Positions 13,551-19,348 of a stretch of 64,000 nucleotides of DNA are shown piece after piece (within the stretch, counting starts at the first letter, position 1; each line of letters opens with the position of its first letter). The stretch spans positions 128,001 to 192,000 of the forward strand of contig OY970209.1 in the NCBI GenBank assembly GCA_963713855.1. Direction: 5' to 3'. This DNA comes from an uncultured bacterium. GTDB lineage: Bacteria; Babelota; Babeliae; Babelales; Babelaceae. Both the position numbers and the translations under genes were made by a program. The notes beneath the pieces are model-generated. The model made no database searches. It had not been told where the DNA came from and saw only the letters and a program-made list of their open reading frames with translations.

Positions 13551-14003
13551 TTAAGATAGATCATCCCGTTCTATTTTAATAACGCCATTTTGATCAATGG
13601 TAAGAACATCTAGCTCCGAGTCGCCATCAATGTCTCCAGCAGCAGCTATTTTAAATCTGTCCTTATTCACACTTGCTCCTTTAAGAGCACTTGATGAAGC
13701 TTTTGAAGATCCAATAACATTATTAATTCCCCCTTTTCCGCTAAACCCATACGTATAGAGGGGTTGACCTTCTGTTTTCCAGCCGAGGCTTTCGGGACCT
13801 GTAAGGCGATCGGTGTAACGACCATGTTCTGCGAAATAAGCTTTTTGAGCTATGTATAAAGCCCTTAAATGAGTATACGCCTCAGTTCTTTTAGCTTTTG
13901 CAAAAAAACGTGTAAAACTGGGCAATGCGATTATGGATAAAAAAGCAATGATTGCTATGACCACCATGAGCTCAAGTAAGGTAAATCCATTTTTTGGGCT
14001 CAT
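13551..14003 (-). CDS. Type IV pilin
   Basis: Prepilin site KNG^FTLLELMVVIAII, AKRTEA, GDIDGD. Confidence 0.9.
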   Translation of the reverse strand: MSPKNGFTLLELMVVIAIIAFLSIIALPSFTRFFAKAKRTEAYTHLRALYIAQKAYFAEHGRYTDRLTGPESLGWKTEGQPLYTYGFSGKGGINNVIGSSKASSSALKGASVNKDRFKIAAAGDIDGDSELDVLTIDQNGVIKIERDDLS

Positions 14004-14287: not shown

Positions 14288-15712
14288 ATGATGGATACGA
14301 TTAAGCAATCCGTACCTAAAGGAGTGTTAGGAGCAAACAAGCAGCGCACGTATTCAGAGATTAATGATTTTTTGGATAAGCGCTGGAATGTACCGCAGGA
14401 CAAGCATTGCCTTGAGCGCATGAAAGCTTTAGATGCTGCGCTTGGGCTTCCTTCGCAAAAAATACCTACCATTCTTGTTGCTGGAACCAATGGTAAAAGT
14501 TTGACCATTCAGTTCACCACTCAGCTTCTAAAAACTGAAGGGTTGAAAGTTGGTTCATTTTATGCACCGCATGTATTGACCTACAACGAGCGTTTTAGCA
14601 TTAACAATGAGACTATTTCTAATAAAAGCTTTACCGAAATAGCGAATGAGGTTCTTAATGCCGCTGAGGGCCTTGAGCTCAAAGCTGGTGCTCAAGAACT
14701 TTTAACGATGATAGCTCTTTGTTATTTTGTGCAGCAGAAGGTTGAGGCGGCCGTTCTTGAGGTTGACAAGCTTACAAGCTTTAACCCTGCGGCAATTTGT
14801 ACGCCAAAAATTGTTACAATTACACGTATCACACCAACAAATACCAGTATTGATGATGCAAAGCTTGAAGAAATAACGCGTGAAATTATGAGCCTTGTTA
14901 AAAAAGGTACTCATGTCATCGCTGGTGATCAGAGCAAAAACCATCTACACATCATGCAGGAATCGACGGAAAAGCTCCATGCTCATTGGGCTATGCCGAT
15001 ACGTAAACTTGCTGCACTCATTTATCCATTTGAGCAATTGCACGGCCGCTGTGCTGCTTTAGCTGAGCGAACTGCTCAGATCTTTGTTGAAAAAATACTT
15101 GCCCGTAATGCCACCCTTGTTATGGACAGCCTTCTTACCAAGCAAAAGGGCCAGCGCGGAAGGCCAACAATCGAGGAAAAGCGTCGCGCAGAACTGTACC
15201 CTAAAAAGACTATCGATCAATTCTGGAAAGAGACAACTAATGAGTTGCCCTGCCGTTTCCAGCTTCTTGATAAAGAAAAACCAAGTATACTTCTTGATAA
15301 TGCGAGAAACCTAGACGCATTCAAAAATCTTCTTCTTGGTATTCGCTTGCTTCATTACCAAAGACCGCTTAAAGGCTTGAGCATCGTTGTTGCTGCTGCG
15401 CACAATACGCTGCACAACGAAGAGTTTCTCAAACTCCTTCGCTATTTCTTCAAAAAGACTTCAGGTCAACTTTTCATTTGCCCTATTGAGGATGCTCTAC
15501 CTGGACTTCAAGAAGAGACCACTTGGAATGTTGAGCAAGTGACCAATGATGTTAAAAGCATGAAGATTAAAGCTCGAGCATGTAAGAATTTTGAAGAAGC
15601 GCTCGATCTTGCTAAAAAGTCTGTTGATGAGCGTAGTGGATTGGTTGTTGTTACCGGTTCACAATCGATTATCTACCAGTACTGGAAGCAAAAAGGCATC
15701 AAAAAGCTATAA
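14288..15712 (+). CDS. folC: FolC/Mur-ligase-family protein (divergent folylpolyglutamate synthase-like)
   Basis: VAGTNGKS P-loop, PHVLTYNERF, AVLEV, PCRFQ..ILLDNARN, VVTGS. Confidence 0.7.
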   Translation: MMDTIKQSVPKGVLGANKQRTYSEINDFLDKRWNVPQDKHCLERMKALDAALGLPSQKIPTILVAGTNGKSLTIQFTTQLLKTEGLKVGSFYAPHVLTYNERFSINNETISNKSFTEIANEVLNAAEGLELKAGAQELLTMIALCYFVQQKVEAAVLEVDKLTSFNPAAICTPKIVTITRITPTNTSIDDAKLEEITREIMSLVKKGTHVIAGDQSKNHLHIMQESTEKLHAHWAMPIRKLAALIYPFEQLHGRCAALAERTAQIFVEKILARNATLVMDSLLTKQKGQRGRPTIEEKRRAELYPKKTIDQFWKETTNELPCRFQLLDKEKPSILLDNARNLDAFKNLLLGIRLLHYQRPLKGLSIVVAAAHNTLHNEEFLKLLRYFFKKTSGQLFICPIEDALPGLQEETTWNVEQVTNDVKSMKIKARACKNFEEALDLAKKSVDERSGLVVVTGSQSIIYQYWKQKGIKKL

Positions 15713-15719
15713 CCCCTTC

Positions 15720-15752
15720 GAGGCAGGGTTATGCACCCTGCCTCTTTTTTTT
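15720..15752 (+). terminator. Rho-independent terminator
   Basis: GAGGCAGGGT-tatgc-ACCCTGCCTC followed by a T-run. Confidence 0.8.
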
Positions 15753-15910: not shown

Positions 15911-16009
15911 TGTAGTTTGCTTTTTTTAAAGCCACTATTTTAACAGTTGCATGCTTACGACCTTCCTCTTATACTGTTAAAAAGGCCTTTACCAAAGGAC
16001 ATAACTACT

Positions 16010-16744
16010 GTGCAATCGATGGAACTTTTTGAGCAACATACCTGGCGACCCTTTGAGGCTATGGGTTTTACGCATTCTTTTTGGTCTCTCAACAGAGAAA
16101 CGATCCTTTACACATGGGTTGTCTTAGGCATACTTACAGTATTTGCCCTTTTTGTGCGCTATTTTATACGCAGGCCTGATACGATTCCTGGAACTATTGC
16201 GGAGACGTATGTACGTTCGTTCATGCAAATGATTACGCAGACGCTTGAGTATTTTGAGTATCGTTACTGTGCTTTTATCGGATCACTTTTTACGTTCATT
16301 TTCGTATGTAACGTGCTCATTCTTTTTCCCTACATGGAAGAGCCGACCAAGGATATTAACACGACGCTGGCACTTGCGATTATTTCATTTTTATACGTAC
16401 AGAAAGAGTCTATTCGTGCTCATGGTATTGGTGGCTATATTAAGGAATTTTTTAAGCCCTTTTTCATTTTTTTCCCACTAGAAGTACTTGGGCGGCTAGC
16501 GACTGTTGTATCACTTTCATTTCGCCTTTTTGGAAACATTTTTGGCGGCTCCATTATTAGCACCATGTGGAATTACGCTATATCAGGCTCGATTTTAGCT
16601 CAGATTGCTGGTACTTTGCTTGGTATAAACATTGTAATCATGCTTTTTTTTGGTATTTTTGAAGGCTTTATCCAGGCCTTTGTATTTTCTATTTTAAGCT
16701 TAACGTACCTTTCTATGGCAGTTTCTGAGGAGCAACATGAATGA
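16010..16744 (+). CDS. atpB: F0F1 ATP synthase subunit a
   Basis: PTKDINTTLALA, SLSFRLFGNI (conserved Arg), EGFIQAFVF; probable GTG start at 16010. Confidence 0.95.
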   Translation: MQSMELFEQHTWRPFEAMGFTHSFWSLNRETILYTWVVLGILTVFALFVRYFIRRPDTIPGTIAETYVRSFMQMITQTLEYFEYRYCAFIGSLFTFIFVCNVLILFPYMEEPTKDINTTLALAIISFLYVQKESIRAHGIGGYIKEFFKPFFIFFPLEVLGRLATVVSLSFRLFGNIFGGSIISTMWNYAISGSILAQIAGTLLGINIVIMLFFGIFEGFIQAFVFSILSLTYLSMAVSEEQHE

Positions 16745-17675
16745 CCTAGCCCACTCATTCACAGTCGCGTCATTGGTTGTTCTGCCTGCCTTAGGTGTAG
16801 GCATTGGCCAAGGTCGCGTGAACAAGGCTGCTGTTGAAGCGATTAACGAGCAGCCTGCTGTTGAAAGCGCTATTAGGCGATTAGCACTTATTTCACTCAC
16901 CTTAAGTGAAACGGCTGTACTTTTAGGCGTCGTTATGGCGAGTCTGATTCTTCGTGGCCCTGTTTTAAAAGCACCGCTTAATCTTTCTTACATCGGAATC
17001 ATCTTTGGCTGCGCTATTCCTGGCTTTATGGTCGGTCTTGTATCTGCGGGTCCTGGTATTGCTGCTCTAAAAGCTGCAGCGCGTCAGCCGCTTTTCATTG
17101 CCAAAATTACTCAACTTTTACTGATTAGCCAGGCCGTTATTCAAACTTCGACCATTTTTGGCTTTATTATAGCGCTCGTTTTACGAAGCCAGGCTTCGAC
17201 AGGAAACTCATCTGATGGCATACGCCTATGTATGAGTGGGGTATGCTTTGGTATTGCGGTTATCGGACCACTTTTGGGCCTAGGCTTTTTTACGAAAGCG
17301 GTGTGCACTGTTGCAGGCCTTAACAGAGCTATTTACCCGCGCCTTAGAACCTTTGCTTTTATAAGCCAAGCGCTTATAGAAGCACCGGTCGTTTTTTCGC
17401 TTATCATCGCACTTGTTTTAGCTATAAGCGGATCTAAAAGCCCCTCTATTGCAAGAAACGCAGCTTTTATAGCGGCAGCATTTATTATGGGACTTACAAC
17501 GCTTGCAACAGGCCTTAATTCAAGCCGCACTGCAACAACCACCGCCAAACTTCTTTCTAAATACCCTGATCAGTACCCTACCCTATCGAAAATGAGCATG
17601 GTCACCCAAACCTTCATCGACACTTCAGCAATTTACGGGCTTCTTGATTGCCTTATCATACTCTGGGCAAGCTAA
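16737..17675 (+). CDS. atpE: ATP synthase subunit c, four tandem fused hairpins (8 TM)
   Basis: Four ~79-aa repeats: GVGIGQG..EQP..E58; RQP..Q136; E215; KYP..D295; overlaps the atpB stop. Confidence 0.88.
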   Translation: MNDLAHSFTVASLVVLPALGVGIGQGRVNKAAVEAINEQPAVESAIRRLALISLTLSETAVLLGVVMASLILRGPVLKAPLNLSYIGIIFGCAIPGFMVGLVSAGPGIAALKAAARQPLFIAKITQLLLISQAVIQTSTIFGFIIALVLRSQASTGNSSDGIRLCMSGVCFGIAVIGPLLGLGFFTKAVCTVAGLNRAIYPRLRTFAFISQALIEAPVVFSLIIALVLAISGSKSPSIARNAAFIAAAFIMGLTTLATGLNSSRTATTTAKLLSKYPDQYPTLSKMSMVTQTFIDTSAIYGLLDCLIILWAS

Positions 17676-17753: not shown

Positions 17754-17975
17754 ATGAAAAAGCACGTACTATGCTTGACGCTCTTTCTTTTCATGTCTTC
17801 TGGAGTGCAAGCACTTCATGAGGCATCTTACACTAAATCAAACTCATGGGCCACGGCCATTGAAAAATTACTGTCTCCACTCTTTCAAGAATTAATGCCC
17901 GCAGATGAAGTTACAAGTTGGATCTCATGGGCTAGCGGATTAGTCAAAAAAGTCGCATCAACAATAAGCGAATAA
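17754..17975 (+). CDS. Small secreted hypothetical protein
   Basis: GGAG RBS, MKKH..VQA signal peptide. Confidence 0.6.
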   Translation: MKKHVLCLTLFLFMSSGVQALHEASYTKSNSWATAIEKLLSPLFQELMPADEVTSWISWASGLVKKVASTISE

Positions 17976-18067: not shown

Positions 18068-19348
18068 TTAACTATTAATCAACTGAGCATTCTCTCCCGT
18101 GCGCCGATTGTGCAGGTATCTCTTGAGAATGAACCCGGAAACCACTGCCGCAGCAACAAAAACAACGGCAGCACCGGCTCCCACACTAACACCTATAACA
18201 CAATCCATATTACAACTCTTGTTACTGTTATTTCCATTATTGCTCTTGCCACAGCCGAATACAGTGACATCATTTGAATTCTCATTAGCAGTAGCAATAT
18301 ATAAGCTGCCTGGTGAAAAGGCGATTGAATTCGCGCCGCTCGACTCAGATGGTAAATTAGTCACTTCACTTTTGCTCAATCTACCTTCATTGTCTACGTC
18401 AAACAGTGCTATTGCGCTAGAAGAACCACCAATAACAATAGCCAGGTACATACCATTTGGTGAAAATGCCGCAGCAGTGAAATAGCCGTAAAAGGAAGGT
18501 AATGCGTATGAGGTGCCCTTACTCAGGGAGCCATCTGGCTCCACACTAAATATGGTTACGTCAGCTGAAAGAATATTAGCAGTAACAAGATACGAGCCGT
18601 TGGGTGAAAAAGATACGGAATTGGGAGTTTTAGAGCCGGAGGGTAATGCATATGATTTTCCTGTGCTCAGTTTGCCGTCTGGGCCGACACCAAAAATCGT
18701 CACATCGCGCGAATTCTGATTAGCGATAGCTAAAAGGGCACTATTTGGTGAAAATGCTATCGACGTAGGAGTAGCTGTCCCCGATGGTAATGCATATGAT
18801 ATTCCACCCGTTAGAATACCGCCAATTCCTACAGTAAACACGCTAATATTAGTTGAACCGATATTAGCAGTAGCAAGATATGAGCCATTGGGCGAAAATG
18901 CTAGGGCAATAGGTTGATAAGAACCAGAAGGCAGCGAATACGAAGCAGCAACTTTCGAGACACTCCCATCTCCTACAATATTAAACACTGTTACATCATT
19001 TGATTCACTATTGGCAGTAGCGAAATACCGGCTATCGGGCGCAAATGCTGCTGCACAAGGATTTTTAGAGCCCGACGGTAAAGGAAGCGAAATAGGTGTA
19101 CTTAGCACTCCAGACTCTTCGACGTTAAACACTGTTACATTATTTGAAACAGGAGGTGGAAAACTTCCTTTGTAAATAGTTGCTGTAACAAGGTATGAGC
19201 CATCGGGTGAATATACTACTGATGAAGGTGCTGAAGACCCGACTGGTAACGCATAGGAAGTGCCGCCATTATTTAGGGAGCAATCAGCATTGAGTCTTCC
19301 GTTTGTTGCCATTACTAGTAGCGTAGCAAGTAAAGTTGTGTTGTTCAT
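18068..19348 (-). CDS. 7-bladed beta-propeller (lactonase-like) surface protein with C-terminal TM anchor
   Basis: Seven ~45-aa repeats SY.LPSGS..P.S..FSPNG.YL.TAN..S.DVT.F; hydrophobic C-terminal helix followed by basic residues. Confidence 0.85.
   Translation of the reverse strand: MNNTTLLATLLVMATNGRLNADCSLNNGGTSYALPVGSSAPSSVVYSPDGSYLVTATIYKGSFPPPVSNNVTVFNVEESGVLSTPISLPLPSGSKNPCAAAFAPDSRYFATANSESNDVTVFNIVGDGSVSKVAASYSLPSGSYQPIALAFSPNGSYLATANIGSTNISVFTVGIGGILTGGISYALPSGTATPTSIAFSPNSALLAIANQNSRDVTIFGVGPDGKLSTGKSYALPSGSKTPNSVSFSPNGSYLVTANILSADVTIFSVEPDGSLSKGTSYALPSFYGYFTAAAFSPNGMYLAIVIGGSSSAIALFDVDNEGRLSKSEVTNLPSESSGANSIAFSPGSLYIATANENSNDVTVFGCGKSNNGNNSNKSCNMDCVIGVSVGAGAAVVFVAAAVVSGFILKRYLHNRRTGENAQLINS

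Follow-up and report, generated by a model that had tools for sequence, protein, structure and literature searches.

A four-hairpin F-type ATP synthase c subunit kept alongside a single-hairpin c subunit in Dependentiae

A 312-aa open reading frame on the forward strand (16737..17675) of the 64,000-nucleotide stretch of Dependentiae DNA analyzed here (the window) encodes an F-type ATP synthase c subunit in which four non-identical hairpins, with eight transmembrane helices in all, are fused. It departs in both size and hairpin number from the usual c subunit, which is a single hairpin of ~70-90 aa. This protein, called tetra-c below, is a genuine and strongly conserved F-type c subunit, and it is very probably a real, working rotor component. 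Tetra-c and a canonical single-hairpin c subunit (called S) are both kept in 189/189 high-quality Dependentiae genomes, and this co-retention suggests a mixed rotor ring, a type of ring so far known from a single bacterium. The explanation we favor, at a probability of roughly 50%, is a hybrid ring of tetra-c and S, resembling the ring of c1 and c2/3 in Acetobacterium woodii.

The first-pass annotation of this DNA had read four c-subunit repeats in the 312-aa ORF. The Pfam model ATP-synt_C (PF00137) matches tetra-c in four stretches and not fewer (E 2.5e-23, 82.5 bits against a cut-off of 24), and a six-frame search of the whole genome placed all four within one stop-free open frame of 323 aa. 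The top NCBIfam matches are all F0F1 subunit C models with three to four stretches each, and F0F1 c models also score highest on every hairpin taken singly. TIGR01260 reaches 45.2, over its cut-off of 43.95, and the single-hairpin NF equivalog models for "F0F1 ATP synthase subunit C" all score under their own cut-offs (e.g., 87.1 vs 128). V-type K models are far under theirs (28 vs 127). The AlphaFold2 model, built from a 35-row alignment, has eight long helices arranged as four hairpins (mean pLDDT 92.9, pTM 0.88). Family models and predicted fold thus bear out the earlier assignment to an F-type c of four fused, non-equivalent hairpins. The gene is encoded with an F0 a subunit in a genome that has F1 and is without a V/A-type enzyme, and its product joins several F-type hairpins, of which at least one is carboxylate-free.

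Site and loop residues were located by aligning the four hairpins with the single c and with E. coli c. The hairpins are arranged as follows.

16737..16970, + strand: hairpin 1, aa 1-78; G-I-G-Q25-G in helix 1, loop E-Q39-P40, site E58-T59-A60
16971..17210, + strand: hairpin 2, aa 79-158; canonical loop R116-Q117-P118, site Q136-T137, without a carboxylate
17211..17444, + strand: hairpin 3, aa 159-236; loop G-L-N196-R197, then Y200; site E215-A216-P217
17445..17672, + strand: hairpin 4, aa 237-312; loop K-Y-P277; site D295-T296-S297, then Y300

Hairpins 1, 3 and 4 have a carboxylate midway along their second helix (E58, E215 and D295), and hairpin 2 has Q136 in its place. The R-Q-P loop is canonical in hairpin 2 only, and reads x-Q-P in hairpin 1, N-R in hairpin 3 and x-P in hairpin 4. 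The residues noted at first pass (E58, Q136, E215, D295, Q25, T59 and D-T-S-A-I-Y) and the loops EQP, RQP, LNR and KYP are all present in the translation and fall in the aligned site and loop columns. The helix-1 ligand column of the alignment holds a hydrophobic residue, L182, in hairpin 3 and S262 in hairpin 4. Only hairpin 4 keeps T, S and Y on the side that faces a neighbor; hairpin 1, in which this side would serve the dead site of hairpin 2, has A60 and L63 there. Hairpin 4 is also the most similar to single c, with the highest hhalign score of the four against the single-c profile (114).

Residues were counted at each position in 93 distinct tetra-c sequences. Position 58 in hairpin 1 is E in 89 and D in 4, with T59 in 87, Q39 in 92 and P40 in 91; position 25 is Q in 64 and E in 25. 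In hairpin 2, position 136 is Q in 91 and E in 2, and the loop is similarly invariant (R116 in 89, Q117 in 91, P118 in 92). E215 of hairpin 3 is present in 93/93, accompanied by P217 (87), N196 (87) and Y200 (83). Hairpin 4 has Q291 in 93/93, T296 in 84 and Y300 in 87, while position 295 is D in 71, E in 18 and N in 4. A census of 202 distinct full-length family members gave Q at position 136 in 175, E in 19 and M, L, V or T in 8. The four-site pattern EQED, whose conservation among orthologs had been proposed as a check, is the commonest in that census (124 of 202), followed by EQEE (38), EEEE (13) and EEED (6), with 21 others.

Tetra-c lies directly downstream of atpB, and the features at this end of the unit are listed here.

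15720..15752, + strand: likely terminator, a G+C-rich inverted repeat followed by a T run, as read from the sequence
15947..16744, + strand: atpB, F0 a subunit (PF00119, 139.3 bits); the longest ORF is 265 aa
16727..16732, + strand: Shine-Dalgarno-like GAGGAG, 4 nt ahead of the tetra-c ATG and inside the 3' end of atpB

The inverted repeat lies just past a folC-like ORF that ends at 15712, and it is likely the upstream edge of the atpB/tetra-c unit. The ATG at 16019 could be the true start of atpB. Its product has the essential Arg within LSFRLFGN, which BLASTP aligns to LGLRLFGN of the E. coli a subunit (E 4e-18). This is the only a-subunit gene, with one match in the whole genome. The atpB stop codon, TGA, is at 16742-16744, and the two ORFs overlap by 8 nt. 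Across 59 distinct loci, atpB is directly upstream of tetra-c on the same strand in every case (59/59); the two genes overlap or abut in 39 and are separated by a gap of 2-33 nt in 20. Tetra-c would be translated together with the sole a subunit, and it very probably serves in the rotor of the one F1Fo ATPase that this organism has.

The remaining F1Fo genes are found elsewhere on the 1.52-Mb contig, in keeping with the first-pass remark that the window holds only atpB and atpE. Another single-hairpin atpE, which that annotation had advised looking for, does exist: S is a canonical single-hairpin c of 85 aa at contig positions 547264-547521 (G000:C1), 403 kb from tetra-c. It heads a c-b'-b-delta-alpha cluster at ~547-550 kb, in which the delta ORF matches PF00213. 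Beta and epsilon are encoded at ~294-296 kb and gamma at ~634 kb. The genome has one atpB, one alpha, one beta, one gamma and one epsilon. No V/A-type A/B subunits were seen, and the PF00006 matches over the cut-off are F-type alpha, F-type beta and Rho. With a single a subunit and a single F1, this genome encodes one enzyme only. The alpha gene in this assembly contains compensated frameshifts and an in-frame TGA; either the enzyme may be broken in this genome or the assembly may have errors there.

In the I. tartaricus ring, Na+ is bound by Glu65 and Gln32 of subunit A and by Ser66, Val63 and Tyr70 of subunit B, with Thr67 acting via water (PMC2359735). S of the window genome has Q32, E65, T66, S67 and F70, a Na+-type ligand set. 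Among 138 S sequences, the corresponding positions are Q in 137, E in 138, T or S in 132, S or T in 110, and Y in 104 or F in 27; S of two deep families is without Q32. S is accordingly a predicted Na+ binder, judged by its match to the I. tartaricus-type ligands. It occurs in 247 of the 251 Dependentiae genomes, including all 189 of high quality. S is more conserved than tetra-c (mean identity 56% vs 42% in 14 matched genomes), and the two genes were never adjacent in the ~70 loci examined.

The best solved relative of tetra-c is A. woodii c1 (PDB 4bem chain J), which ranks first in Foldseek at 23% identity and is a weak match by phmmer (E 3.1e-6). Both are F-type multi-hairpin c subunits in which Gln replaces one carboxylate. 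The two hairpins of c1 align to hairpins 1 and 2 of tetra-c, with E then Q in both proteins, and both genomes also encode a single-hairpin Na+-type c. The multi-hairpin c gene of A. woodii follows atpB, as tetra-c does. The A. woodii c1 and c2/3 genes share an operon, whereas the tetra-c gene does not adjoin the single-c gene and is ~403 kb away from it. Tetra-c further differs in having four hairpins, with three carboxylates of three local chemistries, instead of two hairpins, and in being found phylum-wide in Dependentiae, whereas the c1 type is found in a few acetogens. The A. woodii ring contains nine c2/3 to one c1 (PMC8904574, PMC9171764).

Fused hairpins with fewer carboxylates than hairpins also occur in the two-hairpin V/A proteolipids (E. 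hirae NtpK, PDB 2bl2; V-ATPase c and c''), and the V/A proteolipid fold matches half of the tetra-c model with a target-normalized TM-score of 0.79-0.85. Those proteins have two hairpins and serve a V/A enzyme, whereas tetra-c has four and is encoded in a genome without one. c subunits with 1, 2, 3 and 13 hairpins exist (PMC9171764; preprint 10.64898/2026.10.01.756066). The archaeal c subunits of Methanocaldococcus (3 hairpins) and Methanopyrus kandleri (13 hairpins) resemble tetra-c in carrying more than two hairpins per polypeptide, but they are A-type, whereas tetra-c is a bacterial F-type protein with a canonical c alongside. We know of no second, single-hairpin c gene in Methanocaldococcus or M. 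kandleri. A 406-aa protein from public collections (P0175) has five F-type hairpins, with five stretches matching F0F1 c models, and a carboxylate in the first hairpin only (E/Q/Q/Q/Q). Its best solved relative is also A. woodii c1 (E 5.4e-22), and it shares 27% identity with tetra-c over part of its length. Three look-alike protein clusters of 314, 228 and 323 aa were also found, for which the commonest label is Thermodesulfobacteriota (putative; 4-19 members with a known phylum).

The presence of two conserved c genes in a genome with one a subunit and one F1, together with the A. woodii precedent, makes a hybrid ring the more likely arrangement. One tetra-c, or a few, would assemble with several S into such a ring. 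We infer the joint membership of both proteins in one ring, their ratio, the ion carried and the direction of work. The enzyme would most likely be an ATP-driven ion pump, since the papers on the phylum report no respiratory chain. The first-pass suggestion of ATP-driven pumping in an energy parasite agrees with what has been inferred for this group (PMC4776705, PMC6561590).

Within a hybrid ring, tetra-c would form a chemically asymmetric sector. Hairpin 1 (Q25, E58) and the face of hairpin 4 toward the next hairpin (T296, S297, Y300) would complete Na+-type sites with neighboring hairpins. Hairpin 2 would have an inactive site, because it is without a carboxylate, and would supply the only canonical R-Q-P loop of tetra-c. 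The sites at E215 and D295 look proton-like because Pro and Phe, rather than Ser/Thr and Tyr, would complete them. This ligand pattern fits sites completed by a neighbor; in E. hirae NtpK, the B-side residues are supplied by the N-terminal hairpin (PMC2359735). A more elaborate version, which we consider rather unlikely, is that one tetra-c is a fixed asymmetric sector among Na+-type S subunits, with one Na+-type, one dead and two proton-like sites. Since it would carry the ring's only canonical R-Q-P loop, such a sector could be the one place where gamma and epsilon dock, and it could seed the ring and so set its size. Each turn could then move Na+ and H+ together, and the rotor would have an angular mark with respect to the central stalk.

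A homomeric ring would account just as well for the pairing with atpB and for the ligand pattern, and it is the strongest competitor of the hybrid ring, possible but clearly less probable. Two, three or four copies of tetra-c would give 8, 12 or 16 hairpins with 6, 9 or 12 carboxylates, corresponding to 2, 3 or 4 ions per ATP. S would then either have some other role or build an alternative ring of its own on the same a subunit and F1, perhaps at another life stage or ionic condition. Coupling to atpB and the good Shine-Dalgarno sequence would permit several tetra-c per a subunit. The outer edges are also compatible, with Q25 and E58 of hairpin 1 matched to T296, S297 and Y300 of hairpin 4, so that hairpin 4 of one tetra-c could complete the hairpin-1 site of the next copy. 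To our knowledge, every multi-hairpin proteolipid of the A/V type in prokaryotes forms a homomeric ring. A lower ion/ATP ratio would moreover suit an ATP-driven pump, the role proposed in PMC4776705 and PMC6561590. What argues against a ring of tetra-c only is the retention of a canonical, highly conserved S in all 189 high-quality genomes, which are reduced and have one a subunit and one F1. Coexisting conserved proteolipid paralogs, such as those of A. woodii and of the eukaryotic V-ATPase, share one ring. We know of no bacterial precedent for two alternative rings on one enzyme. The homomeric ring of 8, 12 or 16 hairpins suggested at first pass is therefore weakened by the co-retained S, and we keep it as the second choice.

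Tetra-c could instead lie outside the rotating ring. S alone would then constitute the ring, and tetra-c would be an accessory on the a subunit, whether as a template or chaperone for ring assembly, as an extension of the stator or as a gated leak for ions. S does hold everything that a ring-forming c requires, tetra-c evolves faster than S (by the identities above), and tetra-c is always paired with atpB and not with other rotor or stalk genes. The odd ring of A. woodii, for its part, requires a dedicated factor, AtpI (PMC8904574). However, constraint on tetra-c is strongest at the features of a working rotor, namely E215 (93/93), E or D at position 58 (93/93) and D or E at position 295 (89/93), and the T at +1 and the R-Q-P loop (89-92/93) are also among the most constrained features. 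In other c subunits, the R-Q-P loop contacts gamma and epsilon. All four hairpins keep the c-subunit fold in the AlphaFold2 model. These features make an accessory role improbable, more so than the homomeric ring.

If tetra-c were a redundant copy, its sequence would be expected to show relaxed selection. The gene is found in 246 of 251 Dependentiae genomes across the phylum, including 189/189 of high quality, and in 41/41 near relatives. An alignment query of genome contigs recovered 47 related loci, and a single-protein query gave none. An uninterrupted ORF of about 310-325 aa is present in independent assemblies from many families and sources; one relative instead has the gene as two separate ORFs, 201 and 134 aa long. 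The two pairs with the least saturation give dN/dS values for tetra-c of 0.048 (at dS 0.34) and 0.084 (at dS 0.93), and the corresponding values for atpB are 0.093 and 0.056. Median dN/dS for hairpins 1 to 4 is 0.17, 0.13, 0.12 and 0.11 over 47 pairs from two genera, most of which are saturated (dS >1). The carboxylate-free hairpin 2 is constrained as much as the others, and its mean pairwise identity of 48% is, jointly with that of hairpin 3, the highest of the four. Tetra-c is thus under purifying selection and is not a decaying copy. A canonical atpE elsewhere combined with relaxed selection on tetra-c was named at first pass as a result that would overturn its reading; the canonical gene is present, but the relaxation is not. 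An assembly fusion of separate c genes, or a decaying redundant copy, might draw on the indel-type errors or lesions in the alpha gene and on the relative with two ORFs, but the same unbroken ORF in independent assemblies, dN/dS far under 1 in every hairpin and the separate clade of each hairpin position leave it virtually no probability, and we regard it as refuted as far as comparative data allow.

A tree of 91 hairpins (69 columns) resolves hairpins 1, 2 and 3 each as a clade (SH-aLRT 95-99), indicating that the fusion predates the sampled Dependentiae radiation. Profile scores and the hairpin tree agree, with weak support, in making hairpin 2 the most divergent, in placing hairpins 3 and 4 near each other and in leaving S outside the four; E. 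coli atpE is the only outgroup c that is not a close relative, as the search for S homologs returned close relatives only. Deep Dependentiae families still carry Glu in hairpin 2, so the change from E to Q arose within the phylum. Judging from these residues, the loss in hairpin 2 may be independent of that in A. woodii, and the likeness to c1 may be convergent.

No description of a multi-hairpin c in Dependentiae was found in the openly accessible literature searched. A preprint of October 2026 (10.64898/2026.10.01.756066) describes F-type rings as predominantly single-hairpin and, in its available text, names no F-type case with fused hairpins other than A. woodii. Throughout its sampled radiation, a phylum of intracellular bacteria that scavenge ATP has retained both a four-hairpin F-type c and a normal c, with the four hairpins specialized differently from one another. 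Hairpin fusion with loss of an ion site is the textbook route to an altered ion/ATP ratio and has been linked to synthases becoming pumps. Among F-type enzymes, we know this combination only from the two-hairpin c1 of A. woodii.

Dependentiae thus offer a second, independent test of the hybrid-rotor idea. The lineages themselves form a natural series on the role of a non-equivalent sector, since most of them have Gln in hairpin 2, some have Glu and others Met, Leu or Val. In addition, atpB followed by tetra-c is a simple marker gene pair for Dependentiae. More broadly, the finding bears on how these parasites may energize their membranes from imported ATP.

A c subunit of four hairpins, here called tetra-c (hairpins 1-4 at residues 1-78, 79-158, 159-236 and 237-312; site positions 58, 136, 215 and 295), is encoded in the window beside the F0 a subunit.

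15947..16744, + strand: atpB, F0 a subunit (PF00119, 139.3 bits), directly upstream of tetra-c
16727-16732, + strand: GAGGAG, from reading of the sequence, ahead of tetra-c
16737..17675, + strand: tetra-c ORF, 312 aa, four PF00137 stretches

The atpB stop codon (16742-16744) falls 8 nt inside the tetra-c ORF, and the essential Arg of the a subunit was located in LSFRLFGN, aligned to LGLRLFGN of E. coli. The four fused c repeats described in the first-pass annotation were recovered by the ATP-synt_C profile as four stretches in the 312-aa ORF (Pfam; E 2.5e-23, 82.5 bits), and the site residues and loops it listed are present in the translation, in the expected alignment columns. In NCBIfam, F0F1 subunit C models take all the top places, with 3-4 stretches each, and V-type K models score far below these. 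A six-frame search of the whole 1.52-Mb genome showed one open frame, free of stops, spanning all four stretches. The AlphaFold2 model (35-sequence alignment; mean pLDDT 92.9, pTM 0.88) has eight long helices, forming four hairpins.

Just 3' of tetra-c lies a 73-aa ORF (17754-17975, + strand) with a signal-peptide-like N-terminus and no Pfam match. The − strand at 18068-19348 encodes 426 aa with ~40-aa repeats (S-P-D/N-G-S-Y-L-x-T-A-N), a match to the 7-bladed beta-propeller lactonase family (PF10282, 88 bits) and a terminal hydrophobic stretch; it is probably a surface propeller anchored in the membrane. At 13551-14003 (− strand) lies a gene for a type IV pilin-like protein that has the methylation motif (PF07963) at its N-terminus.

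The remaining enzyme was sought on the 1.52-Mb contig of the source genome (G000:C1). The a subunit, beta (~294-296 kb, epsilon adjacent), gamma (~634 kb) and alpha (~549-550 kb) are each present in single copy. A third ATP-synt_ab match was rejected as a further ATPase subunit, being Rho, and profile searches of the whole genome found no V/A-type or second F-type subunit set. These single copies, with the third match assigned to Rho, thus indicate a single F-type enzyme. Another single-hairpin atpE, for which the first-pass annotation had advised a search, does exist: the PF00137 match at G000:C1:547306-547497 (54.3 bits, the top score in the genome) belongs to an 85-aa ORF (hereafter S), followed in order by two small b-like ORFs, delta (PF00213) and alpha. 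The b-like ORFs (125 and 166 aa; locus L001:1723-2575) have no Pfam match at E 0.01 and were taken for b' and b from their position and N-terminal hydrophobic stretch. The canonical ATP synthase operon is therefore split into four pieces, and after its break-up the a subunit was kept with the four-hairpin c and S with the stalk genes. The alpha gene (G000:C1:548921-550414, equivalent to L009:1060-2553) reads through one frame with 65% identity to its orthologue, and contains an in-frame TGA at 549596 and at least two short stretches that continue in another frame and then return (compensated frameshifts), reflecting either indel errors of the assembly or gene decay. Elsewhere in the source genome the ATP synthase genes are intact.

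Both c genes are conserved across Dependentiae. A tetra-c match was observed in 41/41 near relatives, and nearly all of these matches are full length (frames of 311-349 aa for the 312-aa query). The phylum-wide sample comprised 251 genomes, all of which are placed in one order; tetra-c was found in 246 (the five without a match are 59-78% complete) and S in 247 (the four without are 64-86% complete); each was found in all 189 high-quality genomes. At 59/59 distinct loci atpB lies directly upstream of tetra-c on the same strand, overlapping or abutting in 39 and 2-33 nt apart in 20 by longest-ORF calls, and no S gene occurs in the flanks of the tetra-c loci examined. Protein collections returned 38 word-sharing relatives, and 50%-identity representatives gave 309 matches at E <= 0.001 (105 at E <= 1e-30); among the 150 matches listed, most are 300-325 aa and the rest shorter, except one of 406 aa. 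Record titles of related loci include Candidatus Dependentiae bacterium, Candidatus Babeliales bacterium and Vermiphilus pyriformis; for some, the submitters gave no more than uncultured bacterium or uncultured Pseudomonadota. In one relative tetra-c is split into overlapping 201- and 134-aa ORFs (L020:1092-2049, equivalent to L041:4986-5943), and a second relative has its a subunit in two pieces of 139 and 95 aa (L047:4209-4980); both are probably frameshift errors of those assemblies.

Site anatomy was compared over 93 distinct sequences of 290-360 aa, with fragments, one split gene and duplicates left out.

Site residues, following positions and loops of the tetra-c hairpins (n=93)
Hairpin 1: site E 89, D 4; +1 T 87; +2 A 71; +5 L, I or M; loop N/D-x-Q-P (Q 92, P 91)
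Hairpin 2: site Q 91, E 2; +1 T 86; +2 P 85; +5 F 87; loop R-Q-P (89, 91, 92)
Hairpin 3: site E 93; +1 T 66, A 20, S 7; +2 P 87; +5 F 88; loop G-x-N-R-x-x-Y
Hairpin 4: site D 71, E 18, N 4; +1 T 84; +2 S 34, C 24, N 9; +5 Y 87; loop x-P-E/D-x-Y

Of 146 representatives returned, the 109 with lengths of 295-360 aa were added, which enlarged the set to 202 sequences. The E/Q/E/D pattern singled out earlier proved to be the commonest in this set (EQED, 124/202, site residues in hairpin order), followed by EQEE 38, EEEE 13, EEED 6, DQED 5, EQEN 4, EMED 3, ELED 3 and others 6. On a FastTree tree of these sequences, the hairpin 2 site requires at least seven changes of state, with the Glu state clustered. 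Five genomes from four deep families were also inspected (G107, G142, G129, G115, G161; loci L109-L113, L104-L108): tetra-c has Glu in all four hairpins in family f7 and in both f11 genomes, E/E/E/D in f19 and D/E/S/G in f16. One genus (g25, L116-L125) carries Met at the hairpin 2 site in 10/10 genomes (EMED), and a second genus is EQEE in 10/10. Because deep families carry Glu there and one genus Met, the hairpin 2 carboxylate seems to have been lost within the phylum, its ancestral state being assigned by parsimony on an unrooted tree, and the position seems to have then been free to turn hydrophobic.

S of the source genome has Q32, E65, T66, S67 and F70, with loop G-K-Y-P-E. Across 138 S sequences (21 from loci, 117 from a homologue search, all fairly close relatives of the query), Q32 is found in 137 and E65 in 138, with T or S at +1 (132), S or T at +2 (110), Y (104) or F (27) at +5, and loop K-Y-P-E (132-136). 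For I. tartaricus, the Na+ ligands given in PMC2359735 are Gln32 and Glu65 of subunit A, while subunit B supplies Ser66, Tyr70 and the backbone of Val63, with Thr67 via water. Judged by sequence, this is the ligand set of S. Gln32 is absent from S in 3/5 deep genomes (G-L-G in two f11, G-M-G in f16), the f11 S site (A-E-A-V) has a proton-type look, and the f11 genomes have also lost the hairpin 1 Gln of tetra-c, suggesting a possible switch of ion specificity among Dependentiae.

In E. hirae NtpK, as described in PMC2359735, second-hairpin Glu139 and Gln110 are completed by first-hairpin Thr64, Leu61, Gln65 and Tyr68; the B side of a hairpin (residues +1, +2, +5) therefore contributes to the site of the hairpin after it. 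With helix-1 ligand columns taken from an alignment of the tetra-c hairpins, S and E. coli c, the hairpin 1 site (Q25, E58) would be completed by whatever precedes hairpin 1, and the hairpin 2 site would be dead, its helpers on hairpin 1 having degenerated to A60 and L63. The hairpin 3 site would combine L182 and E215 with T137, P138 and F141, giving a proton-like look, and the hairpin 4 site S262 and D295 with T or A216, P217 and F220, a partial ligand set. Hairpin 4 would present T296, S297 and Y300 to the next hairpin as a complete B side of the Na+ type. Na+-type half-sites would then occur only at the two outer edges of tetra-c, which would explain the chemical heterogeneity of sites already remarked on in the first-pass annotation. 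These edges would match S subunits flanking tetra-c (through Q32/E65 at one edge and T66/S67/Y70 at the other) and the next tetra-c equally well, and would not by themselves decide ring composition.

We put at roughly 0.85-0.9 the probability that tetra-c functions as part of the rotor in the organism's single F1Fo, because its mid-membrane carboxylates, +1 T and R-Q-P loop are constrained and it is paired with atpB. Since small genomes with a single a subunit and a single F1 universally keep both c genes, tetra-c and S may, at about even odds, form a hybrid ring. To our knowledge, coexisting conserved proteolipid paralogues share one ring in every known case; the eukaryotic V-ATPase is one example and A. 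woodii (PMC8904574, PMC9171764) another. The homomeric ring proposed earlier, with tetra-c alone or as an alternative rotor, is the more doubtful arrangement: tetra-c edges would indeed suit a further tetra-c, but S is retained alongside. A place for tetra-c outside the rotor is improbable, given the same constrained residues.

Relaxed selection on tetra-c beside a canonical atpE had also been considered. In the two least saturated pairs, dN/dS is 0.048 (dS 0.34) and 0.084 (dS 0.93) for tetra-c, and 0.093 and 0.056 for atpB. A further 20 genes from two genera (47 pairs, dS 0.05-1.5) gave medians of 0.15 for tetra-c and 0.17, 0.13, 0.12 and 0.11 for hairpins 1-4, rough values as most pairs have dS above 1. 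Over 14 genomes with all three genes, pairwise identity averages 56% in S, 47% in the a subunit and 42% in tetra-c (hairpins 1-4: 38%, 48%, 48% and 45%), so that the carboxylate-free hairpin 2 is among the best conserved. Together, dN/dS and hairpin 2 conservation close the relaxed-selection reading, and artefact or decay is a negligible explanation for this intact, conserved frame.

Profile-profile scores are highest for S-H4 (114; H1-H4 denoting hairpins 1-4), S-H3 (101), H3-H4 (94), S-H1 (84) and H1-H4 (74), and lower for H2-H3 (65), H1-H3 (58), H1-H2 (56), H2-H4 (53) and S-H2 (45). In a low-resolution tree (69 columns) of the 72 hairpins of 18 tetra-c, 18 S and E. coli c, hairpins 1, 2 and 3 each form a clade (SH-aLRT 95, 99 and 99), hairpin 4 is paraphyletic to hairpin 3, and the S clade (SH-aLRT 76) lies outside all four. 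The hairpin clades thus indicate that the fusion was one ancient event, older than the sampled radiation. The best solved sequence relative of tetra-c is A. woodii c1 (4bem_J, E 3.1e-6), whose two hairpins align to hairpins 1 and 2 with Glu then Gln in the same order. The top fold matches (4bem_J, E. hirae NtpK and V-ATPase c) each cover about half of the model (query TM-score ~0.4-0.45), and none is a four-hairpin chain. We class tetra-c as a multi-hairpin proteolipid and, within F-type enzymes, with the c1 type. P0175, the 406-aa protein, is encoded on a 560-kb NCBI contig; of its five F-type c hairpins only the first carries a carboxylate (E/Q/Q/Q/Q), and its best solved relative is also A. 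woodii c1 (E 5.4e-22). The tetra-c family is therefore not alone among F-type c subunits in having more than two hairpins.

Two Dependentiae genome papers mention the ATP synthase only as present and as probably working in reverse, and the available portions of these accounts do not mention the c subunit (PMC4776705, PMC6561590). An October 2026 preprint on rotary ATPase evolution, in the portion available, describes F-type rings as predominantly of single hairpins and names A. woodii as the only F-type case of fused hairpins. We found no description of tetra-c in the literature on Dependentiae ATP synthase or multi-hairpin c subunits.

The A. woodii ring is reported to contain nine c2/3 to one c1 (PMC8904574, PMC9171764). 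In a hybrid ring of tetra-c and S, a single dead site would hardly alter the ion/ATP ratio; a ring of 11 hairpins with 10 sites, for instance, would move 3.3 ions per ATP, the same value as the A. woodii ring. The value of the dead site may therefore lie elsewhere. A tetra-c sector could fix ring size or seed assembly beside the a subunit, and through the only R-Q-P loop it could mark out one sector of the ring for gamma and epsilon to dock on.
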